Made by a program: the position numbers and the translations under genes
From: Candidatus Aldehydirespirator sp.
GTDB lineage: Bacteria; Actinomycetota; Acidimicrobiia; Acidimicrobiales; Aldehydirespiratoraceae
DNA length: 64,000 nucleotides
Reading direction: 5' to 3'
Assembly (NCBI GenBank): GCA_965220645.1
Contig: OZ244836.1
Location: forward strand, 3,072,335-3,136,334
Part shown: positions 6,695 through 53,404 of the stretch, piece by piece
How the letters are laid out: each line of letters opens with the position of its first letter
Numbering within the stretch: the first letter of the stretch is position 1
The notes under the pieces: model-generated
The model's database searches: none
Seen by the model: only the letters and a program-made list of their open reading frames with translations
Told to the model about the DNA's origin: nothing

Positions 6695-6823
6695 ACCGTA
6701 GCCGCGCCGACTCAGTGTCTCCCGCTCTTGTGCGCTGCGCTTACGGGCCGCTCGGGCCACGGCCTCGCGGGCTGCACTCGGCGGATCTTCGTGAACCGCG
6801 ACGTGCCCGCTCGGCCTCTGGTC
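6695..6823. mobile_element. MITE-like dispersed repeat, copy A (5'-truncated)
   Basis: The core CCCGCTCTTGTGCGCTGCGCTTACGGGCCGCTCGGGCCACGGCCTCGC lies at 6721-6768 and the terminal CCGCTCGGCCTCTGG at 6806-6821. The stop of the DsrE-like gene (6822-6824) abuts this terminus. Confidence 0.7.
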
Positions 6824-7310
6824 ACAGGGTCCAGGTGGAGAGGACCAGCGCCTTGTCGCGCCAGGCCTGGATGGTGGCGTCGAGCACGTCGAGCGGGTTG
6901 AACGGGGTCACGCCCTCCATGACGTCGTCCTCGCGCATGCCGTACAGAGCGCCCATGGCGAAGCGGCAGCAGTAGACGGTGGCGCCCTCGTTGATGAGGG
7001 TCTGGAGTTGGCGGTTGTACCCGAGGTTGCCGGGGAAGCCTTCCTGGCCCACGGCCGGGTAGCCCCGGGCGGCGTTGGCCATGAGCACGGCCGGGCCGTA
7101 CAGCACGAACGTCAGCTTGAAGCCCTTGCGCTGTATGCGGGTGGCGGTGAGCATGTTCACCAGGCCGACCGAGCCCTCGAACGGCACCGTGTGCATGAAC
7201 ACGTATGCCTGGTCGCCCTCGTCGGCCTTGTAGTCGGGGAAGATCTTCTCCTCGATGTTGTGCATGACGTCGCCCTCTTGGGGCGGCGGGATGGTTACTG
7301 TCTTGGGCAT
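6822..7310 (-). CDS. DsrE/DsrF-like (DrsE_2-type) sulfur-relay family protein
   Basis: The ATG at 7310 is preceded by AAGGAGG. The sequence MPKTVTIPPP...VYCCRFAMGALYGMREDDVMEGV resembles the DsrE-like family that commonly sits next to CoA-disulfide reductases. Confidence 0.75.
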   Translation of the reverse strand: MPKTVTIPPPQEGDVMHNIEEKIFPDYKADEGDQAYVFMHTVPFEGSVGLVNMLTATRIQRKGFKLTFVLYGPAVLMANAARGYPAVGQEGFPGNLGYNRQLQTLINEGATVYCCRFAMGALYGMREDDVMEGVTPFNPLDVLDATIQAWRDKALVLSTWTL

Positions 7311-7353
7311 ATTCGCCTCCTTGTTGTTGTTGTGGGTCGCTGGTCGATGGGTC

Positions 7354-7614
7354 TCAGACTGCCGGTCCCCGAGGCCGGCTCGACGTGACGGGCCAGTCCT
7401 TTCGGTGTGACCCCGGCAGCGCGGCGATGACGCGCCGCCGCACACCCCAGGGCAGCCGACGGTACGCCGGCGCGAACACTTGCATCCAGAAGCGCTCGCG
7501 CCAGCCGCGGGCCCTCTCCGGCGCCCTGGCGCCGTAGCGAGCACCGATACGCCGCTGGGCGTCGATCGCCAGGTAGTGCTCCGAGTTGGAGCGAAGCCAC
7601 TGCGGGAATCCCAT
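7354..7614 (-). CDS. hypothetical small basic protein (86 aa)
   Basis: It starts with ATG 19 nt after the upstream stop. Codon third positions are almost all G/C, like real genes here. It sits between two co-directional genes. I recognise no domain. Confidence 0.5.
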   Translation of the reverse strand: MGFPQWLRSNSEHYLAIDAQRRIGARYGARAPERARGWRERFWMQVFAPAYRRLPWGVRRRVIAALPGSHRKDWPVTSSRPRGPAV

Positions 7615-7632
7615 GACGGCGCCGCCCGACCC

Positions 7633-8955
7633 CTACAGCCCGGCCAACAGGTTCTGGGCGGCCACTGAGATCGGCTCGTTGAGTGCGCCTATGGCGGGTG
7701 AGTACACGTTCTCCATCGTGGCCAGTTCCTCGATGGTGAGGCCAACCCGGACCGCCATGGCCAGGAAGTCCGCTCGCTCCTTGATCCCCTCGCCGCCGAT
7801 CATCTGGGACCCGATCAGCCGGAGCGATCCGGGCTCGGCCAGGAGCTTCACCGTGATGGGCTTGACGCCCGGGTAGTAGCGGGCCCGGGTGATGCCCTGG
7901 GCCTTGCCCACAACGTGCTCAATGCCCAGCGCAGTAGCCAGCGTCTCCCCGAACGACACCCCGCCGATCATCCACTCGCCGGCCAGCAGTCCCCACGGAA
8001 CGAAGACTGCCCGGTAGTGGCGAGTCCCGCCGACGGCGTTGGTGCCGGCCGTTTTGCCCTGCGAGTAGGCGTGGGAGCCGGTCAGTCCCTGGATCGGAAT
8101 GTTGGAGACCCCGTGCGGGATCTCGGTGCAGTCGCCCGCGGCGTAGATGTTGGGATCCGAGGTCTGCATCTTCGAGTCGACGACCAGGCCGCCGGTTGTG
8201 CCCAGCTTGAGGCCGGCCGCGGCGGAGAGCGGATTGTTGGGCACCTTGTGTGTGCCGATGATGACGATGTCGGCTTCGATGTCGCCCTGCTGCGTCTCGA
8301 CGCCGCTCACGGTCCCGTCGCCCTTGAACGCCGTTACCCGGTTGCCCCACTGCATGTCGACGCCGGCGTCCTCCCAGGCCTGGCGAACCGGCTCGACGAT
8401 GTCGGGATCGAGCACGTCGGCCATGGGCCACGGGGCCGGATCGACGACGGTGCACTTGATCCCTCGGTGGACCATTGCCGCGACCATCTCCATCGCCACG
8501 AGACCCGCATCGATGATCACCGCGGAGGTGCAGGAGTCGAGGCGCTTGTCCCACTCCATGGCCTCCCGGATGTACTTGACCTCGTAGATGCCGTCGAGAC
8601 CGGCTCCGGGAACGTCCACTTGCGCATAGTTCCACCCGGTTGCGATCACCAGCCGGTCGTAGGACGCCTCACCCTCGCCGGCGACGGCGAGGGTGCGCGA
8701 CTTCGGGTCGATGGCTGTCACGGTTGTCTCGTAGTGGACGTCGATGCCGGTGGCGACGTACTGCTCCTTGGTGGCCAGGAAGAGACGCTCGAATGAGTCG
8801 ATCTCCTTTCCGTGGACGTAGGGAATGCCGCAGGGGCTGTAGGCCACATCGGTGTCCGCGGTGTAGACCACGACATCGGCGTTGGGATCGACACCCTTGG
8901 CTGCGCCCGCAGCCCCGATGCCTGCGGCGCCGCCGCCTATCACCGCTATCCGCAT
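7633..8955 (-). CDS. FAD-dependent pyridine nucleotide-disulfide oxidoreductase (CoA-disulfide reductase / NADH oxidase family)
   Basis: The N-terminus has VIGGGAAG. A single redox Cys lies in YSPCGIPY, a second dinucleotide fold in AVIIDAGLVAMEM, and the C-terminus has AAGDC. Confidence 0.88.
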   Translation of the reverse strand: MRIAVIGGGAAGIGAAGAAKGVDPNADVVVYTADTDVAYSPCGIPYVHGKEIDSFERLFLATKEQYVATGIDVHYETTVTAIDPKSRTLAVAGEGEASYDRLVIATGWNYAQVDVPGAGLDGIYEVKYIREAMEWDKRLDSCTSAVIIDAGLVAMEMVAAMVHRGIKCTVVDPAPWPMADVLDPDIVEPVRQAWEDAGVDMQWGNRVTAFKGDGTVSGVETQQGDIEADIVIIGTHKVPNNPLSAAAGLKLGTTGGLVVDSKMQTSDPNIYAAGDCTEIPHGVSNIPIQGLTGSHAYSQGKTAGTNAVGGTRHYRAVFVPWGLLAGEWMIGGVSFGETLATALGIEHVVGKAQGITRARYYPGVKPITVKLLAEPGSLRLIGSQMIGGEGIKERADFLAMAVRVGLTIEELATMENVYSPAIGALNEPISVAAQNLLAGL

Positions 8956-11685: not shown

Positions 11686-14277
11686 GTGGAGACCGAGCCA
11701 GGCGGCGCGCCGACGAGCGCACCGGGCGGTTGGTCCCTGGATCCTACGCTTGTTCACCCTCCCTCCGCCGTCGGTGGGAGGAGCGCACCTGCCGGTTGGT
11801 ACCCGGACCCTGCGGACGTGTCAAGGCAGCGACTATGGGACGGCCATCAGTGGACCGACGAAGTAAGCACGGTGGTCAGCGCCTCTGCGGATGCGACGGA
11901 ACCACCCCCTTCTGAGCCGCCGCGTGGCGCTGACTCGGGGCCGCACAGTCCGCCGCTAGCGTCGCTCGGCAGACGACTAACGGCAAGAGTCATCGACTCC
12001 TTATGTCTGCTAGCAGCACTGTACCTGATCGCATCGCTAGCATCGAGATACGCAAGTTACGAACTATCTGACGTATTGAATGGCGAATTAAGCTCGCGGT
12101 TGATCCTGCTCGTGCCACTGTTCTTATGGGAATTCGTTCCACAGGCGTTCACCGGACGCACCTTAGGCAAGGCTCTGCTTGGTATTCGTATCACCAGAGG
12201 TGACGACTCTCCTAGCAACCGATTCCTGGCTGCCTTCGTTCGTTCTGTCGGAATGCTGCTCTTTCTTCTGCCACTCATATTTCTCATAAGCTGCATCACG
12301 GTATTCAGAAAGAAGCGCCGCACGATTCCGGATATGCTCGCCGGAACGTCAGTTGTGAGGGTCGCTACGGCACCGATCTGGCGACTAGTGATAGCCGTGC
12401 TCGTGATCATGATTCTGACCTCATCTGTGGGCTACAGCTATCTTGAGGTGTGGCGACCAGCGGCCAGAATAGGCAATGAGTGGGAGCCCTTGAAATCCTT
12501 TTACGATGCCGATCAAGTTCGAGCCGAAGTTGTCGCCAACATCGACATACTGGACTACGACTTTGTGGTACTCCGCAAGTCTGGAGACACATCCGTATGG
12601 GACATTGCCTACTTCACGGGTGATCCAGAAGACGAGGAAGCTCTCACGGATGAGCTTTGGGAAGACTTCCTCATGGTCGAGTGCTACCGGTATAGGGATG
12701 ACACCTCCGGTTCGCCGGGCGTCGCCTTCGATTGGCCCCAACTAACTCCTTCCGGCGGAACCGATGTGGAACTGTCTTGGCGTGCGAGCACGGGAGCGTC
12801 CGGACAAGCTGTGGGGCTGATGAACTATGAGTCAGAAGATGTGAGTGGTGCCTGGATCGCGACAGCCGGTCTGACGGAGGACGACATTCGGAACAATCTG
12901 CGCGAGAGTGGCCGCTCACCTGATGAACTCGACGGAATACCGGTTGTCTTGCATGACTTCTACGAGGCGTTGCTGGAGGCCGACAGGGTCACGCTCACGG
13001 CCGGGGCCACGAGCAACACCTGGGACCTGCCCGAGGACTCAAGCTCGCTCAGGAGTCTGGTCGAACGATGCGAGGAGGCAAGCGCCCAAGACTCGTCTCC
13101 CGTTGAAGCAACGCCCTCTACGGAAGCAAGCAGCAGCGAGGCGAGCACCGGAGGCTCCTTGCCTGGCGATGTGGATCGCAGTACGACTTCGGCATGCGAA
13201 TTCTCGGACCGGTCAGCCGCTGTAAGAGGCGCTGTCTTCCAAATGTTCGCCGGGGGCGGCATCGGCACGGCTTTCTATGTCGGCAACGACGAGTGGATAA
13301 CCGCGGCCCATGTCGTGGAGAACCAGCGCAGCGTCGTCCTGCGAAACGGCGCCACAGAGCTTTCAGCCACCGTCAAGGGCGGCGATCTGATGGCGGATCT
13401 TGCCCTGTTGGAAGCAAACGGCGACGGGATCGCAGCGCTTCGCTTCGGATCTCTGCGAGAAGTTGGTGCAGGCTTCACTGTTTTCGCGATCGGCTTTCCG
13501 CTGTACGAGGCAGCCGAGTCGTCAGTCACGAGCGGTGTGCTCTCCAGGGTTGAGCAGTACGAGGACTTGGGCGAGGTCATCGTGACGGACGCGTCGGTGA
13601 ATCCCGGCAACAGCGGAGGACCGCTCGTGGACGAGTGCGGCGATGTAGTAGGAATGATCATCGCCAAACATGTGGGAGCTGATGTTGAAGGCATCGGCTA
13701 CGCAGTCCCCGAGACGACGCTACAAGATCAGATCCCGTCTCTTCGCACAGCTGGACCCGATAGCATCGCAAGTGGTCGATCCGACGCCAGCGTCAATCGT
13801 GGAGGTTACACTGACGGCTCAACCGAAGAGGGTTGGATCTTCGGCGAAGATGCAAATGTCGATGGCGGATTTGAGTACTATTCTCTAGAGGCTGAATGGC
13901 ACTCTAGTTACATATCTGGGTACGGCCTTACACTGTTTCTGGTCTGTAGCACGACAGGATCATTGTCAAACGACTATATCTCTGTCTCGACGCCATTCCT
14001 GATCTTCAACGACTACAACTACGACAGTTCAACGGTCCGCTACAGGTTCGAGGACATGACAGCACCCTTCACTGAGCAGTCGTGGTGGAGTTCCGAAGAT
14101 GTCGAATCTTGGCTGTTCGCTCCAGAGGACACTTCATTCGCCGAGCACCTTGGTCGTGCCGGCTCGGGACGCCTGTACATGGAGTTCATTCCCGGCAGCA
14201 CCGTGGGAGATGTGGAGAGCGCCGAATTCATCGTCGATGGCGCGTCGGAGGTCTTGCGAGCGCTCGACTGCTGGTAG
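11686..14277 (+). CDS. multidomain membrane protein: DUF2510-like + RDD + unknown domain + trypsin-like serine protease + unknown C-terminal domain
   Basis: GWYPDPADVSRQRLWDGHQWTDE is the DUF2510 motif (aa 36-58). An RDD-type region with 3-4 TM helices spans aa 93-250. The S1 triad is ITAAHVV (H542), MADLALL (D571) and GNSGGPL (S643). G+C is clearly lower than in the flanks. Confidence 0.88.
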   Translation: METEPGGAPTSAPGGWSLDPTLVHPPSAVGGRSAPAGWYPDPADVSRQRLWDGHQWTDEVSTVVSASADATEPPPSEPPRGADSGPHSPPLASLGRRLTARVIDSLCLLAALYLIASLASRYASYELSDVLNGELSSRLILLVPLFLWEFVPQAFTGRTLGKALLGIRITRGDDSPSNRFLAAFVRSVGMLLFLLPLIFLISCITVFRKKRRTIPDMLAGTSVVRVATAPIWRLVIAVLVIMILTSSVGYSYLEVWRPAARIGNEWEPLKSFYDADQVRAEVVANIDILDYDFVVLRKSGDTSVWDIAYFTGDPEDEEALTDELWEDFLMVECYRYRDDTSGSPGVAFDWPQLTPSGGTDVELSWRASTGASGQAVGLMNYESEDVSGAWIATAGLTEDDIRNNLRESGRSPDELDGIPVVLHDFYEALLEADRVTLTAGATSNTWDLPEDSSSLRSLVERCEEASAQDSSPVEATPSTEASSSEASTGGSLPGDVDRSTTSACEFSDRSAAVRGAVFQMFAGGGIGTAFYVGNDEWITAAHVVENQRSVVLRNGATELSATVKGGDLMADLALLEANGDGIAALRFGSLREVGAGFTVFAIGFPLYEAAESSVTSGVLSRVEQYEDLGEVIVTDASVNPGNSGGPLVDECGDVVGMIIAKHVGADVEGIGYAVPETTLQDQIPSLRTAGPDSIASGRSDASVNRGGYTDGSTEEGWIFGEDANVDGGFEYYSLEAEWHSSYISGYGLTLFLVCSTTGSLSNDYISVSTPFLIFNDYNYDSSTVRYRFEDMTAPFTEQSWWSSEDVESWLFAPEDTSFAEHLGRAGSGRLYMEFIPGSTVGDVESAEFIVDGASEVLRALDCW

Positions 14278-33066: not shown

Positions 33067-34601
33067 TAGCGGACTGCTACGTCGACAGTGTGCGGCTGCT
33101 GGAGGCCACCCGGGCGATGCGCGAGGCGACCGGCGTGGACCGGGCCTGGGCGCTGATGGCCACTCCGGCCAATCTCGATGCCCTGGCCGCCGAGGGCCTG
33201 ACCGATCAGCTCAGCGGCGCGGCGGCGAACGACCTGGTCCTGGCAGTCAGAGGATCCGGCGATGAGCTGACCGCAGCCCTGGAGGCGGGACGGCGCATGC
33301 TGTTCGAAGCGACCGAGCCCGGCGGCGCAGCTCACTCAATGCCGGCGGGGACGCGCCCTGCCAGCCTCGACGACGCTCTGGCCGAGGCTCCCGATGCCAA
33401 CGTCGCCATCGTCTCGGTCCCCGGTCCGTATGCGGCCCTGGAGGCCCACAAGGCCCTGACCCGCGGCCTCGACGTTCTGCTGTTCAGCGACAACGTGCCC
33501 CTGGCCGACGAGATCGGTCTGAAGCAACGGGCGTGCTCTCTGGGCCGGCTGGTGATGGGCCCGGGCGCTGGCACTGCAGCACTAGGTGGCATTGGGCTCG
33601 GCTTCTCGAACCGGGTGGCACCAGGGCCGGTGGGGGTGGTCGCGGCCGCGGGCACGGGCGCCCAGGAGGCCATGACCCTGCTCGACCGCTGGGGATCGGG
33701 GGTCTCCCATGTGGTCGGAGTGGGAGGCCGCGACCTGTCCGAAGCGGTCGGAGGGCTGATGGCCGAGGCCGCCATGGATGCCCTAGACGGTGACGCCGGC
33801 ACCGAGTTGACGTTGCTGGTGTCCAAGCCGCCCGCTGCTGGCGTGGCCGAGCGCCTGCTGAGCAAGCCCAGGAACAAGCCGATCGTGGCCGCGCTGATCG
33901 GGCTGGGGACACCGGTGGCCGCACCGGATGGCGTGACGGTGTGCAACACGCTCGAGCAGGGCGTGGTGGAGGCGCAGGCCCGACTCGCTCAACCCGGCGG
34001 AGACCCGCTCGGTTCCATCGACGCGGAGATCGCCGCACTGACTACACACCTCGACCCGTCCAGAAAGCGGATGGTGGGGCTGTTCAGCGGGGGCACCCTG
34101 GCCTACGAGGCAATGACCATCACCAGCCGCCACATTGGCTCCGTGTTCTCGAACACGCCGCTGGAGGCGGCATGGGCGCTGCCTGCGCCCCCCGACGGCC
34201 ACCTGTGCCTCGACCTGGGTGAGGAGGAGTACACCCGGGGGCGCCCCCACCCCATGATCGATCCCGAGGCAAGGCTCGAACTGCTGCGTGACCAGGCTTC
34301 GGACCCGAGCGTGGCTGTCGTGTTGCTCGATGTGGTGATCGGCGACGGCTCCCATCCGGACCCCGCCGCCATGCTCGCTCCGACCGCGGCGGAGATTGTC
34401 AAGTCGGGCGCGGCCGTCGTGGCCTACGTGCTGGGCACCGACCGGGATCCCCAAGGCTTCGAGCGGCAGCGATCAATCATGCGCGAGTCGGGATGCGTCG
34501 TGGCCGAGACGAACGCCCGGGCCGCCCTGGCCGCGGCCGCGCTCGTGAACCGCGACCCCGCGCTCGTCCATCACGACTTGGCGACCTCGTTCACGGTGTG
34601 A
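33048..34601 (+). CDS. fdrA: FdrA family protein (succinyl-CoA-synthetase-alpha-like)
   Basis: The N-terminus CYVDSVRLLEATRAM, a CoA-ligase-like glycine-rich region (VVAAAGTGAQE) and the 517-aa length are typical of FdrA. Confidence 0.85.
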   Translation: MMRTEVVADCYVDSVRLLEATRAMREATGVDRAWALMATPANLDALAAEGLTDQLSGAAANDLVLAVRGSGDELTAALEAGRRMLFEATEPGGAAHSMPAGTRPASLDDALAEAPDANVAIVSVPGPYAALEAHKALTRGLDVLLFSDNVPLADEIGLKQRACSLGRLVMGPGAGTAALGGIGLGFSNRVAPGPVGVVAAAGTGAQEAMTLLDRWGSGVSHVVGVGGRDLSEAVGGLMAEAAMDALDGDAGTELTLLVSKPPAAGVAERLLSKPRNKPIVAALIGLGTPVAAPDGVTVCNTLEQGVVEAQARLAQPGGDPLGSIDAEIAALTTHLDPSRKRMVGLFSGGTLAYEAMTITSRHIGSVFSNTPLEAAWALPAPPDGHLCLDLGEEEYTRGRPHPMIDPEARLELLRDQASDPSVAVVLLDVVIGDGSHPDPAAMLAPTAAEIVKSGAAVVAYVLGTDRDPQGFERQRSIMRESGCVVAETNARAALAAAALVNRDPALVHHDLATSFTV

Positions 34602-35770
34602 CCCTGCCGGCGCGTATCGCCATCGCCACCTACTCGGTCAGGCCTCGTGGCGGGGCCGTGCACAGCGTGGAACTGGCCGAAGCCCTGGCGGAGGAGGGAG
34701 TCGACGTGACCCTCATCGCCCTGGGCGACCCGGCTGAGGGCTTCTTCCGTCCCACCACGGTGCCGGTGCACATCGTCGAAGCCCCACCCCGGACCGGAAC
34801 CCTGACCGACCGGGTCTTCTCTCACATCGAAGCCCTGACATCGGGGCTGACCGGGCTCGGGGGCCGCTTCGACATCGTGCACACGCAGGACTGCATCTCG
34901 GCCAGAGCCGCGGCCCGGGTTCGCGATCGTGGGGCGGGGTTCCGGGTGTTCCGCACGGTGCACCACATTGATGACTTCACAACCCCGGCGCTGATCGAGT
35001 GCCAGGACGCGGCCATCACCGAGCCGGACCGTGTGCTGGTGGTGAGCGAGCCGTGGAGGAGGCGCCTTCTCGACGACTACGGCGTGACAGCGGCAGTGGT
35101 AACCAACGGGGTGAGGGTGGAGCGGTTCGCCGGCGCGACGCGGTCTCCGGACGAGCGCGACTCCCTGCGGTCCCGGATCTCCGCCGGGGGGCGCCACCTG
35201 TACCTGACGGTGGGGGGCATCGAGCCCCGGAAGGGATCGCGCTATCTGGTCGAGGCGCTGGGTCTGCTCAAGGCCATGCCGGGCCCACCCCCGATGCTGG
35301 CGGTGGTGGGCGGGCACTCCTTCCAGGACTACCAGGCCTACCGCGACGAGGTGCTCGGGTCGCTGGACTCCCATGGCTTGCGTCTAGGAGACGACATGGT
35401 GCTGGTCGGAACGGTCCCCGACGTCGAGTTGCCCGGATGGTTCGGCGCCGCCGACAGCTTCGTGTTCCCGTCGATCAGTGAAGGCTGGGGTTTGGTGATT
35501 CTGGAGGCTCTGGCCGCCGGGCTGCCGGTGGTGGCCTCTGATATCGAGGTCTTCGGTCAGTTCCTGACCCACGACACCGACGCGTTGCTGACCGAGGCGG
35601 CCAACCCGGCCTCGCTGGCGGCCGGCATGGCCCGGGTGCGGGACGACCCCGATCTGGTGCGCCGGCTGCGGGCCAACGGGGCGGCAACCGCCGGCCGCTA
35701 CTCGTGGGCCAGCACCGCCCGACGCCACATGGAGTTGTACGCCGAGGCGCACGCCCCCTCCCGAAATTGA
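34598..35770 (+). CDS. GT4-family glycosyltransferase (MSMEG_0565-like)
   Basis: The N-terminus is RIAIATYSVRPRGGAVHSVELAEAL. The C-terminal motif is PSISEGWGLVILEALAAGLPVVASD. The GTG at 34598 overlaps the fdrA stop (GTGA). Confidence 0.85.
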   Translation: MTLPARIAIATYSVRPRGGAVHSVELAEALAEEGVDVTLIALGDPAEGFFRPTTVPVHIVEAPPRTGTLTDRVFSHIEALTSGLTGLGGRFDIVHTQDCISARAAARVRDRGAGFRVFRTVHHIDDFTTPALIECQDAAITEPDRVLVVSEPWRRRLLDDYGVTAAVVTNGVRVERFAGATRSPDERDSLRSRISAGGRHLYLTVGGIEPRKGSRYLVEALGLLKAMPGPPPMLAVVGGHSFQDYQAYRDEVLGSLDSHGLRLGDDMVLVGTVPDVELPGWFGAADSFVFPSISEGWGLVILEALAAGLPVVASDIEVFGQFLTHDTDALLTEAANPASLAAGMARVRDDPDLVRRLRANGAATAGRYSWASTARRHMELYAEAHAPSRN

Positions 35771-39249: not shown

Positions 39250-39365
39250 AACCGCAACCGTAGAGGCCGAGCGGATGGAGAGCGACTCAGAAGAAGGGCT
39301 CTGACGCGTTCGCGCTCGCTCATAGACTCGCCCCGATCATCGAACGGAACGCCCGGAGGCACCCG

Positions 39366-39992: not shown

Positions 39993-40720
39993 CCACCGTC
40001 GATGTGGCCGTGCCCGCCCGGGCTCTCGCGATCGGCGCCCACCCCGACGACATCGAGTTCGGCTGCGGGGCGACGCTGGTCAAATGGGCCGACGCCGGCT
40101 GCGAGGTGAGCCTGCTGGTCTGCACCGACGGCTCCAAGGGAACCTGGGACGCCGACGCCGACATCGCGGCCCTGGTGGCCCGCCGCCAGCAGGAGCAGGC
40201 CGAGTCGGCCCGCCGACTCGGTGCCCGCGGCGAGGTGCGCTTCCTGGGCGAGGTGGACGGCGAGCTGGAGGTGACCATGGCTCTGCGCAGCCGGATGGCC
40301 AAGGTCATCCGGGAGCTGCGCCCCGATGTGGTGCTGGGGCACGACCCGTTCACGCGCTGGCGCCTCCATCCCGACCATCGGGCCGCCGGGTTCTTGTGCA
40401 TGGACGCGCTGGTTGCGGCCCGCGACGCCCACTTCTTCCCCGAGCACGGCGTCCCCAACCATCGCCCGGCCGAGCTGCTGCTGTTCGAGTGCGAGGACCC
40501 CGATCACGTCGAGCAGGTGGCCGAGGCCCAGATCGAGGCCAAGGTGAGCGCCCTGCTGGCCCACGAAAGCCAGTACGTGAGCACCCACCGCATCGACCCG
40601 GAGGACGACGGCACCGGCAAGGCCGAGTTCCGGGCCAGCATCTTCGAGAAGTGCCGCGCCGCGGGGCGCAGGGCAGGCCTGACCTACGGCGAGGCATTCA
40701 AGCGCGTCGAGCGCGTTTAG
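39989..40720 (+). CDS. PIG-L (LmbE-like) family deacetylase
   Basis: ALAIGAHPDDIEFGCGATL...HPDHRAAG are PIG-L motifs. The GTG start overlaps the fbiD stop (GTGA). Confidence 0.85.
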   Translation: MTTVDVAVPARALAIGAHPDDIEFGCGATLVKWADAGCEVSLLVCTDGSKGTWDADADIAALVARRQQEQAESARRLGARGEVRFLGEVDGELEVTMALRSRMAKVIRELRPDVVLGHDPFTRWRLHPDHRAAGFLCMDALVAARDAHFFPEHGVPNHRPAELLLFECEDPDHVEQVAEAQIEAKVSALLAHESQYVSTHRIDPEDDGTGKAEFRASIFEKCRAAGRRAGLTYGEAFKRVERV

Positions 40721-40800
40721 GGGCTGCGCGGATAGGTGAGACTCCGTCGGGTCGCAGCGGTGTCATTCCCGCTCTTGTTCGCTGCGCTCACGGGCCGCTC
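40716..40800. mobile_element. MITE-like dispersed repeat, copy B (3' part diverged)
   Basis: The terminal repeat TTTAGGGGCTGCGCGGATAGG (40716-40736) contains the TAG stop of the PIG-L gene. The core CCCGCTCTTGTTCGCTGCGCTCACGGGCCGCTCGGGC follows it. Confidence 0.7.
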
Positions 40801-40877
40801 GGGCACGCGTCGGCCACGCGGGGCAGCAACTCCCGCAGCGTAGGGCGGCTGCGTCCAGGCGCTACCGTCGGCACGGC

Positions 40878-44066: not shown

Positions 44067-44857
44067 CCACCGATCCGATGACCGGGGCGCCGGGCGGGCA
44101 GGTGCTGGAGAGTCAGGTCGCGGTGGTGACCGGGGCCGGGCAGGGCGTCGGGGCCGGGATCGCGACGGCGCTGGCCGCCGCGGGAGCCGCGGTCGTGATC
44201 GCCACCCGCCGAGCCGCCAACGGCGAGCCCGCCGCCGAGTCGATCCGGGCCGCCGGCAATGAGGCCGTCTTCGTTCGCTGCGATGTCACCGAGGCCGGCG
44301 ACGTGGCGGCCACGGTGGCCGAAGCGGTGGAGCGCTTCGGCGGGCTGGACATCGTGGTTCACAACGCGGTTGCTCACGCGGGGCGGCCCGGAGGGGTGCA
44401 TCTCACCGGCAGCCACCGGATCCGGCCTCAGATCGCCACCGCCACCACCGCGAGCTTCCTCTGCGCCCGGGCGTCGCTGCCTCACCTCCGCCGGAGGCCG
44501 GGCACCTTGATCCTGCTCACGTCGCCCGCAGGAGTGGAGGGATCGGCCAACCTACCCGTCTACGCCACGGTGAAGGCCACCCAGCGCGGGATCGTCAAGA
44601 GCCTGGCCCGGGAGTGGGGTCCGCACGGCGTGCGGGTCAACGCCATCGCCCCGGTGGCCCGCACCCCGGCCATGGAGGCGGCCGTGGCCGCCAATCCCGA
44701 CCTGGAGACCCGCCTGGTCGCCCGCACACCGCTGGGCCGCCTGGGCGACCCCACCGCCGACATCGGCCCGGTTGCGGTGTTCCTGGCCTCCGAAGGCGCC
44801 CGCTACATCACCGGCCAGACCATCGTCGCCGACGGTGGAGGCTTCCTGGGTCTGTAG
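44063..44857 (+). CDS. SDR family oxidoreductase
   Basis: VTGAGQGVG, HNAV and YATVKAT are present. The ATG overlaps the upstream stop (ATGA). Confidence 0.88.
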   Translation: MTTDPMTGAPGGQVLESQVAVVTGAGQGVGAGIATALAAAGAAVVIATRRAANGEPAAESIRAAGNEAVFVRCDVTEAGDVAATVAEAVERFGGLDIVVHNAVAHAGRPGGVHLTGSHRIRPQIATATTASFLCARASLPHLRRRPGTLILLTSPAGVEGSANLPVYATVKATQRGIVKSLAREWGPHGVRVNAIAPVARTPAMEAAVAANPDLETRLVARTPLGRLGDPTADIGPVAVFLASEGARYITGQTIVADGGGFLGL

Positions 44858-45042
44858 ACGGCCCCGGACGCGTCTGGCACGGCCGGGTTCCCGCTCTTGT
44901 TCGCTGCGCTCACGGGCCGCTCGGGCCGTGACTCCCGCTCCTGTTCTCTACGCTCACGGGCCGCTCGGGCCCGGGGCCTCGCTCGGAATCTCGCGTACTT
45001 GCTCACGGACTTCTGCCTGTCCGCTCGGCCTCTGGGTGCTAG
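44852..45042. mobile_element. MITE-like dispersed repeat, copy C (two tandem cores)
   Basis: The cores start at about 44889 and 44932. The TIR-like CTGTAGACGGCCCCGGA contains the SDR stop (44855-44857). The terminal CCGCTCGGCCTCTGGGTGCTAG lies at 45021-45042. Confidence 0.7.
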
Positions 45043-45052
45043 ACCGGGTGCC

Positions 45053-45925
45053 GTGGGTGAGGTCCATCTGCTAGTAAGCCCCCGAGGCGGCAGGGGACGG
45101 GCCGCGGCCGCCGCCCCGATCGTCCGCCGGGTGATCGAGCAGTCCGGCCACAAGCCGGTTGACATCAGCGGGGGCTCCGCCGAGGAGTCGGCCACCGCGG
45201 CCCGGGCCGCGGTGGCGGCGGGTGCAGAGCGGGTGATCGCGGTGGGTGGTGATGGCACCGTGCACCTCGCCGTTCAGGGCGTGGCCGGCACCGACACCGC
45301 CCTAGGAATAGTGCCCGCAGGCACCGGGAACGACTTCGCCCGAGCCTTCGGACTGCACGGCCGCAGCGTCGAGGGGGCCACAGCCACCGCATTGGGACCG
45401 ACCCGGCCGGTGGACGCCATCGGCACCGACCGGCCGAGGTGGGTGACGTTCAGCGTGACCGGCGGCTTCAGCGTGGATGTCAATGTGCGGGCCGATCGGC
45501 TTCAGTTCCCCAAAGGGCCGAGCCGCTACACGGTGGCAACCCTGCTCACCATGCCGGGGCTGCGCCACCGCGAGCTGGCCGTCACCGTCGACGGGCAGCG
45601 AACCGAGTGGCGTAGCGCCCTGTTCGCAGTGAACAACACACCGACCTTCGGAGGCGGCATGGCCATCTGCCCCGACGCCAAACCCGACGACGGGATGCTG
45701 GACGTGTGCGTAGTGGGCCCGGCCAGCCGGACCACCATGCTGCGCCTGCTCCCGAAGGTGTTCGAGGGCAACCACGTCGGCCATCGCCATGTTCACCTGC
45801 TGCGGGGGCGCACAGTGACTATCGAGGGTGAGCCCATGGACCTCGTCGGCGACGGCGAGGAACTCGGCACCGTACCGATCACGCTGGAGGCCGTGCCCGG
45901 TGCGCTGCGGCTCGCCGCCGGCTAA
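45053..45925 (+). CDS. diacylglycerol/lipid kinase family protein
   Basis: VIAVGGDGTVH and GIVPAGTGNDFAR motifs are present. The GTG at 45053 is chosen because the upstream part of ORF 44897.. is repeat sequence. Confidence 0.82.
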   Translation: MGEVHLLVSPRGGRGRAAAAAPIVRRVIEQSGHKPVDISGGSAEESATAARAAVAAGAERVIAVGGDGTVHLAVQGVAGTDTALGIVPAGTGNDFARAFGLHGRSVEGATATALGPTRPVDAIGTDRPRWVTFSVTGGFSVDVNVRADRLQFPKGPSRYTVATLLTMPGLRHRELAVTVDGQRTEWRSALFAVNNTPTFGGGMAICPDAKPDDGMLDVCVVGPASRTTMLRLLPKVFEGNHVGHRHVHLLRGRTVTIEGEPMDLVGDGEELGTVPITLEAVPGALRLAAG

Positions 45926-46063
45926 GAGGCCGAGCGGATAGGGAGCGAACTCGGTCCATACGGGCGAGGCCGTGGCCCGAGCGGCCCGTGAGCGCAGCGA
46001 ACAAGAGCGGGAGTGACACCGCTGCGACGCGACGGGCTGTCGCCTATCCGCGCAGCCTCTAAG
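45922..46063. mobile_element. MITE-like dispersed repeat, copy D (most complete, 142 bp, with terminal inverted repeats)
   Basis: The left end is CTAAGAGGCCGAGCGGATAGG (45922-45942). The right end CCTATCCGCGCAGCCTCTAAG (46043-46063) is its inverted repeat at 18 of 21 positions. The TAA of the lipid kinase and the TAG of the minus-strand phosphatase both lie inside the TIRs. Confidence 0.8.
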
Positions 46064-49896: not shown

Positions 49897-50000
49897 CCCA
49901 GAGGCCGAGCGGACCGACGACAGCTCAGCTGACGATGCCGAGGGCGTTGAGCGAGGCCGTGGCCCGAGCGGCCCGTGAGCGAAGCGAACAAGAACGGGCA
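49897..50000. mobile_element. MITE-like dispersed repeat, copy E (inverted orientation; right boundary uncertain)
   Basis: CAGAGGCCGAGCGGA lies at 49899-49913. The core reverse complement GAGCGAGGCCGTGGCCCGAGCGGCCCGTGAGCGAAGCGAACAAGAACGGG lies at 49949-49998. Confidence 0.65.
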
Positions 50001-50096
50001 TCCCAAAGGCGGGGCAGACAGAGCGCGGCTTCGCCGCTGTCGGGTCGCCGGTCCTGGTAGCTTGGGCGCGGTTCTTGGGCGGGCGGTGACAACCCC

Positions 50097-52304: not shown

Positions 52305-52320
52305 CGAGATCTCCCCTGTC

Positions 52321-52427
52321 GTGTCTTTCGCGCTCTTGTTCGCTTCGCTCACGGGCCGCTCGGGCCACGGCCTCGCTCAACGCCTTTCGAAGTCCCCCCA
52401 GACTATTGCCATCCGCTCGGCCTCTAG
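52321..52427. mobile_element. MITE-like dispersed repeat, copy F (5'-truncated)
   Basis: The core GCGCTCTTGTTCGCTTCGCTCACGGGCCGCTCGGGCCACGGCCTCGCTC is present. The terminal CCGCTCGGCCTCTAGG contains the TAG stop (52424-52426) of the minus-strand LLM gene. Confidence 0.7.
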
Positions 52428-53404
52428 GAGTCTGCCAAAGCGGGCAGCACTTGTTCGGCCGTTAGCTGGACGCTCGACCAGGCCTGGTCGATGGGCATGC
52501 CGCCCACCAGGGGGTGCAGGGCGAGGGTGCCGGTGCTGCGGGCCAGGTCGACCGCCTCGGCGGGGGTGAGCACCTGGTAGATGCCCTCGGCTCGCAGCTC
52601 GTCGACGGTGGTGGCCACCGAGCACACCGCCGAGGTCTGGCCGGGGGGCTGCCAGCCCTTGTAGGTCATGGCCTCCAGCATGAAGCAGTCTCCGTGCTCG
52701 GCCCACACGCGGTCGGGGTCGTCGGCCACGGTCAGCATCACCACGTTGTCGGGCGCTATGCAGAAGCCCTGCGTGCCGTGGCGCTCGCACTCGGCGTAGT
52801 ACAGGGCCTCGATCTCACCGAACTTGCCCGGCAGCTGCATGGGCAGGCCCAACCGGGCGGCGCGCCGGGCCGCCGCGGGCGACGATCCCCCTACCAGCAC
52901 CATGGGGTGGGGCCGGGTGTGGGGCATGGGCAGCACCTGCACGGTCTCGCCGTTGTGGGTGAAGGGCTCGCCCTTCCAGGCGGTGAGCATCACCTCCAGC
53001 GCCTCGTCGAGCACCTTGCCGCGGCGCTTCCAGTCCTTGCCCATAGCGGCGTACTCCACCGGCCGGTAGCCGAGGCCGGTGACGATCACCAGCCGGCCCG
53101 GGCTGACCAGGTCGATCACCGCGATGTCCTCCGCGGCCCGGATCGGGTCGTGCAGGGGCAGCAGCAACGCCGAGATGGTGACCATGAGGTTGTCGGTGCT
53201 CGACAGGATCATGGCCGCGTTGAGCAGCGGCGTGGGGCACCACGCCATGGGTGAGCTGTGGTGCTCCTCCAGCGACACCGCGTTGAAGCCGTGGCTGTCG
53301 GCGTAGCGGGCGATCTCCAGTCCGGCCCGGTAGCGGTCGCTCATGGCCTGGCCGTCGGCCGGATCGGGCGACACGAAGTTGTAGCGGATCAGCGAGAAGG
53401 CCAT
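52424..53404 (-). CDS. LLM-class flavin-dependent oxidoreductase
   Basis: From the ATG at 53404 the sequence MAFSLIRYNF...FNAVSLEEHH...VTGLGYRP is luciferase-like. The ORF-track extension upstream covers a tandem repeat. Confidence 0.85.
   Translation of the reverse strand: MAFSLIRYNFVSPDPADGQAMSDRYRAGLEIARYADSHGFNAVSLEEHHSSPMAWCPTPLLNAAMILSSTDNLMVTISALLLPLHDPIRAAEDIAVIDLVSPGRLVIVTGLGYRPVEYAAMGKDWKRRGKVLDEALEVMLTAWKGEPFTHNGETVQVLPMPHTRPHPMVLVGGSSPAAARRAARLGLPMQLPGKFGEIEALYYAECERHGTQGFCIAPDNVVMLTVADDPDRVWAEHGDCFMLEAMTYKGWQPPGQTSAVCSVATTVDELRAEGIYQVLTPAEAVDLARSTGTLALHPLVGGMPIDQAWSSVQLTAEQVLPALADS

Follow-up and report, generated by a model that had tools for sequence, protein, structure and literature searches.

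Bacterial MITEs, or miniature inverted-repeat transposable elements, of the Correia, ERIC and RUP types are short, intergenic sequences with inverted-repeat ends that lie at gene boundaries and can alter neighbouring transcripts. The eukaryotic PIF/Harbinger-Tourist MITEs belong with an IS5-related transposase superfamily, duplicate a 3-bp TWA target and comprise very numerous short derivatives. Among IS5-family elements of bacteria, the actinobacterial IS1237 has terminal repeats that start with GAGG and makes a TTA (TAA) duplication (PMC2516522), and the BrickBuilt and IS5-repeat MITEs of Porphyromonas gingivalis include many copies without one end and may hold tandem units in their interior (PMC4596501). 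Here we describe a repeat family found in a 64,000-nucleotide stretch of Candidatus Aldehydirespirator sp. (Acidimicrobiales; assembly GCA_965220645.1, contig OZ244836.1, positions 3,072,335 to 3,136,334). We refer to this stretch, which has a G+C content of about 70%, as the window, and count positions from its first base. The repeat is a real, short, non-coding mobile-element family, and it is very probably an IS5-family (IS1031/IS427-like) MITE with a 3-bp TWA duplication in C-TWA-G and a partner IS5-type transposase. A first-pass annotation of the window had already proposed a MITE-like, non-autonomous family, and that proposal is upheld by the ends, the flanking duplications, the dispersed copies, the presence/absence differences and the occurrence of the partner element in MITE-bearing genomes.

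The best full-length copy is 134 bp long and lies on the minus strand (45926..46059), where it gives the top match of a profile hidden Markov model (HMM) trained on 14 full-length copies from outside the window. In element orientation it is composed of a left terminal repeat, a left arm, a core, a right arm and a right terminal repeat, and with its context it reads C-TAA-GAGGCCGAGCGGATAGG ... CCTATCCGCGCAGCCTC-TAA-G. The terminal inverted repeats are 17 nt long (GAGGCYGNGCGGATAGG), with TAA at each side; the longer 21-nt ends delimited in the first-pass annotation also form an inverted repeat, agreeing at 18 of 21 positions. The left end, GAGGCTGCGCGGATAGG, occupies 46043..46059 (minus strand), and the right end, which reads inward as GAGGCCGAGCGGATAGG on the plus strand (45926..45942), belongs to the same 17-mer class that bounds IS5-family elements. 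Between them lies the 48-nt conserved core (45964..46011, minus strand), which includes two look-alikes of that right-hand repeat, arranged as direct repeats. The flanking TAA triplets, at 45923..45925 and 46060..46062 on the plus strand, are the two copies of the target duplication, and the first of them is the stop codon of a DAGK/YegS-like gene. Full copies of the family measure 134-148 bp and have no capacity to encode a transposase, and the 17-nt consensus is found at both ends of 56 copies.

The partner was recognised by its ends. A metagenome scan with the terminal-repeat consensus recovered further MITEs together with about a dozen elements of 956-1006 bp that carry the same repeats. 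Each has a single open reading frame (ORF) of about 284 amino acids (280-290) with the Pfam domains DUF4096 and DDE_Tnp_1, for which the score with NCBIfam NF033580 (transpos_IS5_3) is 161.8 bits, well over the cut-off of 110. With the transposase of a metagenome element as query, an intact homologue was found in a MITE-bearing Acidimicrobiales locus, L113 (loci outside the window are given L numbers), and the closest database relatives of the L113 protein, on complete chromosomes, are entitled 'IS5 family transposase [Candidatus Poriferisodalis sp.]'. Locus L247 on OZ242344.1 (Ca. Poriferisodalis sp.) holds a 958-bp insertion sequence that reads GGC-TAA-GAGGCCGCGCGGATAGG ... CCTATCCGCTGACGCTC-TAA-GCT, and the same genome also has MITE loci (L052 and L073). 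The left ends of the MITE and of the L247 insertion sequence agree at 16 of 17 positions (GAGGCTGCGCGGATAGG in the best copy versus GAGGCCGCGCGGATAGG). An asymmetry between left and right ends (GCGCGG versus AGCGG) is common to MITE and insertion sequence, and the likeness reaches slightly into the left arm. Insertion sequences with TAA/TAA flanks are present in L136, L140, L222, L245, L247 and L248. The partner thus has the features of its IS5 group, namely a length of 956-1006 bp, ends of the form GAGG...CCTC and a DDE transposase of the IS5 family; the IS1031/IS427-like placement is made by element size, ends and duplication, with group criteria (about 0.85-1.0 kb, ends that start with GAG/GG, and a duplication of 2-4 bp, typically 3-bp TNA) from PMC2516522 and ISfinder.

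The window itself is free of detectable transposase homology when an IS5-family protein is used as query, as the first-pass annotation had stated. A tblastn search with an actinobacterial IS5-like protein found nothing in the Acidimicrobiia loci; the same probe marked the insertion sequences in metagenome loci. When the loci were compared all against all by BLAST to look for candidate insertion sequences among multi-copy repeats, only orthologous pairs came up. As a separate observation, both the insertion sequence and the MITEs repeatedly adjoin a sequence of the form (C)TWA-GCCTGAATCCACCGG.G.GGTG...GGGGGTTG, in L248 (about 1488-1600), in L028 (about 5684) and in L041, where it forms the right flanks of the copies at 815-960 and 7598-7694. 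In L248 a DDE_Tnp_1_4 transposase gene follows it. This looks like the terminus of a different insertion sequence with a preferred CTWAG target, giving nested insertions.

Mobility is indicated by junctions that are filled in some genomes and empty in others. At the GPD/CofC junction, the empty sites of L121, L122 and L124 read CCC-TAG-ACTCG, and the filled sites of L120, L123 and the window (copy at 39263-39321) read CCC-TAG-[element]-TAG-ACTCG. The junction between DAGK and the inositol monophosphatase (IMPase), which holds the best copy in the window, is empty in L122 and also in L121, whose two convergent genes have CTAG in common and overlap by 4 nt. The PIG-L/ATPase, luciferase/VanY and ECH/luciferase junctions likewise contain a copy in the window but none in most relatives: the luciferase/VanY junction (copy 49901..50003) is empty in L120, L121 and L123, and the ECH/luciferase junction (copy 52320..52424) is empty in L120-L123, with a core remnant in L124. 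The reverse case also occurs, since L047 has a copy where the window has none (34583-34605), and additional filled/empty pairs are present among the other loci. As indirect signs of recent activity, two copies in L041 that lie 410 bp apart differ by one base within the element, and two copies in L120 have a private core insertion in common, which is the subfamily structure expected of a transposon. The DAGK/IMPase junction also contains another repeat (..GGCAACACAATGCACACATACCGTGAAAACGCTGCCAATTCCGG..), in L120 (10876-11015, two tandem units) and L123 (10876-10944), so that several repeat families seem to share it as a hot spot.

The genomes available for these comparisons are species representatives of about 82-95% identity, whose intergenic DNA is too diverged to fix the length of the duplication; that length is indicated by the flanks themselves. 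The usual flank context is C-TWA-G. Identical flanks of TTA/TTA are found in the window, in L041 twice, in L082 and in L241, TAA/TAA in L099 twice, L041-7598, L012-4937 and L186, and TCA/TCA in L058. Of 56 copies, 9 have equal left and right flanks, where permuted pairing gives a mean of 3.7 (p~0.007); of 30 MITEs from metagenomes, 13 do, where permutation gives 5.1 (p<0.0002). A target-site duplication, which the first-pass annotation had left to be defined, is therefore seen as identical 3-bp flanks in the best-preserved copies, in excess of permuted pairings.

The family extends well beyond the window. A 21-mer of the core, run against one genome per species, matched at least 119 loci, nearly all titled as metagenome-assembled genomes of Acidimicrobiia or Acidimicrobiales and one only as 'Actinomycetes bacterium'; Ca. 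Aldehydirespirator, Ca. Poriferisodalis, Microthrixaceae and Rhabdothermincola are the taxa named among the matches listed. The further copies on which the MITE proposal had been made to depend are thus found in at least 119 Acidimicrobiia loci. The profile recognises 182 copies in 0.98 Mb of Acidimicrobiia loci, a density biased by the choice of loci by their core. In five loci for which synteny with the window was the sole criterion of choice, and which are about 86% identical to it, there are 7 copies over 104 kb. This density, roughly one per 15 kb, would by extrapolation amount to a few hundred copies in a genome.

When 50 full copies are aligned, they show a left terminal repeat of the pattern GAG-NNN-GCGCGGATAGG, followed by a variable left arm of about 30 nt with a semi-conserved motif (TCGCG..GCAGCGGTGTCA), and a right terminal repeat of the pattern ..CCTATCCGCTCGGCCTC. 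Conservation is much stronger at the right end than at the left. Subfamilies are split by the length of the right arm, which is about 25 nt (CCGTATGGGCCGGATTCGC..), about 40 nt or very short (..GCAAGCTCGGCCTC or ..CTTCGCC....GGCTCAGCCTC), and many copies that appear to have no right end belong to the short-right-arm subfamilies. The core look-alikes of the right end, CCGCTCGG(G)CC and CGGCCTC, are in direct orientation. Cores may also be arranged in tandem, with two units at 44888/44928 in the window, up to four in L117 and further tandem units in L010. Elements with the same terminal repeats and an unrelated interior occur at L041 7598-7694 and L012 4937-5033, each with TAA/TAA flanks, and MITE families of 112 bp and about 134 bp with these repeats occur in other metagenomes. 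Because the same ends enclose other interiors, the terminal repeats are the determinant of mobility and the core is a module of one lineage. Copies with only a right end were considered as a separate mobile unit and rejected, since their left boundary is heterogeneous and often includes fragments of the left terminal repeat. Two further arrangements were seen among these loci. In L021 (2500-2640), a MITE right end with its flank (GCTGTCAGC-TAG-AGGCCGAGCGGAGAGACGCACGAAGCCGG..) has undergone local tandem duplication and is present three times. L052 (4957-5055) contains a separate element of about 100 bp, bounded by inverted repeats (GAGGCTGGTCGGAAA...), which probably represents a further IS5-type MITE family of Ca. 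Poriferisodalis.

The conservation of the core raises the question of whether the core, rather than the ends, is the object under selection. On this reading it would be a structured RNA or a functional cis-element, of a regulatory, terminator or sRNA-like kind, and the inverted repeats would be incidental. It is nearly invariant in the 50 aligned full copies, which come from two Acidimicrobiales families, at 33 of the 43 junctions between co-directional genes it lies antisense to them (p~0.0006), and a single copy folds with a z-score of -3.5 to -4. However, the loci were chosen by an exact core 21-mer, so that much of the invariance is a selection artefact, and the synteny-chosen loci contain orthologous cores that are decayed, interrupted or deleted. 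The low folding energy derives mainly from the terminal-repeat stem. RNAalifold applied to the 50 copies gives -12.5 kcal/mol, to which covariation contributes -0.36, and only one of 13 pairs is compensatory; no Rfam match was obtained at gathering score or at E<=10. The existence of core-less MITEs with the same terminal repeats also argues against this reading. Covariation was the test by which a conserved RNA was to have been distinguished from a transposon, and with neither covariation support nor an Rfam match an RNA or cis-element under selection is unlikely.

A role for the core within an IS5-family MITE is a different matter. An incoming ORF is found at 53 of 112 right ends (47%) versus 18 of 66 left ends (27%), and the bias of the core toward the antisense orientation amounts to 33:10. 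It is possible, if rather doubtful, that the core is more than a passenger, with its look-alikes acting as extra transposase-binding sites and/or the host having co-opted it at the transcript level. Host co-option would explain the excess of incoming ORFs at right ends, the antisense core and the far better conservation of the right end and core than of the left end. If the look-alikes (CCGCTCGG.., ..CGGCCTC) were binding sites, they could let the MITE out-compete its parent element and spread across two families of sponge-associated Acidimicrobiales.

Several observations weigh against the assignment to an IS5-family MITE with a 3-bp duplication. The right ends of the MITE and the L247 element agree at only 13 of 17 positions. 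Identical flanks are found in a minority of copies only, most copies being decayed. Two 'empty' sites in L065 keep GAGGC(C) and are microhomology deletions, not a pre-insertion state, so an empty site need not mean that the element had yet to arrive. No such insertion sequence was seen in any genome labelled Ca. Aldehydirespirator, and the partner is known from other genomes. Finally, the commonest flank pair of the full-length insertion sequences is TAA...TTA (6 of 18), which is no direct repeat, and a 2-bp TA duplication with terminal A/T is conceivable for the insertion sequence itself.

This last point touches the mechanism originally proposed, an IS630/Tc1-mariner MITE that is mobilised by an IS630 transposase, enters TA or CTAG and duplicates the 2-bp TA. 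TA or T.A is indeed present in every flank and several sites are CTAG; the many full-length insertion sequences with TAA...TTA flanks can be parsed as TA + AGAGG...CCTCT + TA, and with a TA duplication the site in L246 becomes a perfect palindrome, CTCGCGAG-TA-CTCGCGAG. A single pair of ends plus TA would nevertheless leave inexplicable the co-occurrence of TTA/TTA, TAA/TAA and TCA/TCA flanks in one family, in which the outer T is invariant. Moreover, the IS630-like transposase with matching ends that was to be searched for did not emerge, the transposase found between identical terminal repeats being of the IS5 family. Together, the 3-bp flanks and the IS5-family transposase leave the IS630/Tc1-mariner attribution unsupported, and we regard it as very improbable. 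A REP/REPIN-like element moved by a RAYT (an IS200/IS605-type tyrosine transposase) would share the intergenic location, GC-richness, palindromic character and high copy number, but is barely credible for a family whose inverted repeats are terminal, which has flanking duplications and ends matching a DDE IS5-family element, and which is without a GTAG-headed REP unit, although no search aimed at a RAYT gene was made.

For the favoured IS5-family MITE, we propose that the transposase recognises the terminal inverted repeats over about 17-24 nt (GAGGCYGNGCGGATAGG) and that the element would enter a T-W-A triplet within C-TWA-G, with duplication of the triplet. The element starts with G and ends with C, so that both new junctions would read C-TWA-G again. 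This pentamer, which holds TAA on one strand and TAG on the other, would be strongly depleted in a genome of about 70% GC and largely confined to gene ends. Insertions at stop codons would spare the reading frames and, since intact frames let an insertion survive selection exactly there, would be expected to accumulate at stops. The core would be a passenger or a subterminal module with right-end look-alikes, neither coding nor demonstrated RNA. Mobilisation by an L247-type IS5 transposase, the exact duplication length and the role of the core are what we infer from comparison of these ends, flanks and copies.

The association with stop codons is pronounced. Stops were located by the offset of the stop-codon start relative to the first base of the terminal repeat, at recognisable termini with an incoming ORF of high third-position G+C (GC3; n=71). 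In 29 of the 71 the stop is at offset -3, -2 or -1 (binomial p~1e-30 versus uniform placement in a 150-nt span). The stop is made up in one of three ways: TAA or TGA is the flanking triplet itself, TAG consists of the last two flank bases and the G of the repeat, and TGA consists of the last flank base and the GA of the repeat. Consistent with the proposed target, CTAAG and CTTAG are about 9-fold depleted in the window (4 and 2 occurrences versus about 55 expected from base composition), and two of these six sites are the flanks of the best copy.

Six stops in the window had been listed as lying in or abutting an element end. All six are real ORF ends, five of them with Pfam support (PIG-L ending at 40720, SDR at 44857, DAGK/YegS at 45925, inositol monophosphatase at 46059 on the minus strand and a luciferase-like gene at 52424 on the minus strand), and four overlap the flanking triplet (in order of position, -2 TAG, -3 TAA, -2 TAG and -2 TAG). 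The PIG-L TAG is formed by the flanking TTA (40717-40719) and the first G of the repeat. The DAGK/YegS TAA is the flanking triplet (offset -3), and the inositol monophosphatase TAG (46061..46059, minus strand) takes T and A from the flank at 46060..46062 and adds C46059 (offset -2). In the luciferase-like gene, the TAG (52426..52424) is TA plus C52424, the last base of the repeat. The other two do not fit the listing as closely: the TGA at 6822-6824, which ends the ORF 6822..7544 (minus strand), lies 3 nt outside the copy end, and the SDR TAG at 44855 has no recognisable terminus beside it, the left end of that copy being decayed.

Orthologues without the element end at the same place to within about 1-5 codons, which bears on the suggestion that insertion might have shortened or extended the flanking ORFs. 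For PIG-L, the comparison with the element-free state is GTC-TAG versus GTT-TAG, and the luciferase gene reads C-TAG-GAG in L120, L122 and L123. DAGK ends within one codon of its element-free orthologues, and IMPase is 3 codons longer than in L121 and 5 codons shorter than in L122. The stop therefore existed before insertion and was then duplicated. It follows that the stop is duplicated or regenerated, not newly supplied as the word 'provide' would have it. Similarly, element ends and stops do coincide, but the target is C-TWA-G, which contains TAA/TAG, rather than the stop codon as such, and insertions within genes occur.

Two such insertions illustrate the point. In L120 (4593-4766), a MITE has entered CofC 25 nt short of its stop, at a TGA that is out of frame and that lies where this gene overlaps PIG-L in relatives; the CofC ORF runs 33 codons into the element, lengthening the protein from 208 to 241 residues, and the two genes are separated. 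In L122 (14759-14902), a full copy lies 45 nt into the VanY-like coding sequence and the called gene start is inside the element, which from its position may supply a new N-terminus or start to the gene. Since genes can be entered in this way, the stop pattern must owe something to selection as well.

Some features of base composition and stop usage in the window may be recorded here. CTAG occurs 42 times, versus about 180 expected from base composition. Stop usage among 50 high-GC3 ORFs is TGA 33, TAG 14 and TAA 3. Between 12001 and 14000 the G+C content falls to 0.57, and 7 CTAG sites are clustered at about 11950-13900; this stretch lies within one ORF (11686-14277, plus strand) with DUF2510, RDD and trypsin-like peptidase domains.

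The census of copies in the window largely agrees with the earlier one. The 48-nt core is found with two or fewer mismatches at four sites (6721+, 45964-, 49951- and 52329+) versus 0 expected, and the profile HMM matches exactly seven times at six loci: at 46066-45919 (-), 52320-52432 (+), 40714-40805 (+), 50003-49893 (-), 6711-6824 (+), 44928-45040 (+) and 44888-44927 (+). The seven cores at six loci reported before are thus recovered. An eighth copy, absent from the earlier list, was revealed by a search with the terminal repeat alone; it is an internally deleted copy without core that has kept both terminal repeats between TAG..TAG flanks (39263..39321, minus strand). Three copies consist of core, right arm and right terminal repeat: one with a decayed left end (6711..6818, plus strand), one in the divergent luciferase/VanY junction (49901..50003, minus strand) and one at 52320..52424 (plus strand). 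The copy at 40720..40804 (plus strand) retains the left terminal repeat, left arm and core and stops after CCGCTCGGGC. The copy between the SDR stop and the DAGK start (44888..45032, plus strand) has its core twice in tandem together with the right arm and the right terminal repeat, and its left end is unrecognisable. The SDR/DAGK junction, where the window has this two-core copy, is filled in L124 (9544-9879) and L120 (9574-9879) by an unannotated minus-strand ORF of about 100-110 amino acids with no Pfam match.

The Pfam-supported genes beside the copies encode a PIG-L deacetylase, a P-type ATPase, two SDRs, a DAGK/YegS-like kinase, an inositol monophosphatase, luciferase-like oxidoreductases, an enoyl-CoA hydratase and a VanY-like peptidase; no tRNAs were found in the window. 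A coding reading of the recurrent peptide that the first-pass annotation had noticed in translations of the copies is excluded, as copies lie on both strands, are truncated at will and are placed between real genes.

What these insertions do to their surroundings can be judged from the gene pairs that they separate. PIG-L and the ATPase overlap by GTGA in L121 versus a 157-nt gap in the window, and the 4-nt overlap of DAGK and IMPase in L121 is replaced by a gap of 133 nt. We infer that insertions pull apart overlapping or translationally coupled gene pairs and lengthen 5' leaders. The family is thereby a possible source of regulatory variation between symbiont lineages, as well as a marker for strain-level and population studies. 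For annotation, gene callers are misled by ORFs that run into the element and by spurious ORFs within it. No new mechanism is revealed, but the family offers an example of how a C-TWA-G preference, together with extreme GC content, may steer insertions onto stop codons and leave genes intact.

No MITE described from sponge Acidimicrobiia came up in a literature search. As far as that search goes the family is previously undescribed, and an abundant repeat of sponge-symbiont Acidimicrobiales here receives a name and a proposed mechanism; its kind, a type II MITE with IS5-family terminal repeats, is well known. Among bacterial MITEs at gene boundaries, the Correia, ERIC and RUP types have a 2-bp TA duplication and IS630-like or unknown partners, in contrast to the 3-bp duplication and IS5-family partner here. 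The PIF/Harbinger-Tourist elements, which are eukaryotic and need a second, Myb-like protein, are likened to this family by general features, not by sequence. A closer parallel is with BrickBuilt and with ATR/ISNme1 of Neisseria, which like the family here are type II MITEs whose ends match an IS5-family element and whose interior is unrelated to the transposase. BrickBuilt also shares the tandem interior units, of which the core here has 2-4 (window 44888/44928; L117, L010), but differs in sequence and host phylum, has irregular duplications and has no reported association with stop codons (PMC4596501).

The partner itself most resembles IS1237 and ISLxx6 of Leifsonia xyli (IS5 family, IS427/IS1031 groups), with which it has in common an actinobacterial host and a length of about 0.9-1.0 kb. 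Like ISLxx6, the partner encodes its transposase in a single ORF without interruption; in IS1237 the gene is not read-through. IS1237/ISLxx6 and the present family have terminal repeats that begin with GAGG and a 3-bp TTA (TAA) duplication (PMC2516522). The terminal repeats diverge beyond GAGG (GAGGTGGTTTCAG versus GAGGCCGCGCGGATAGG here), and, unlike IS1237 and ISLxx6, the object found in the window is no insertion sequence and is instead a non-autonomous derivative of one.

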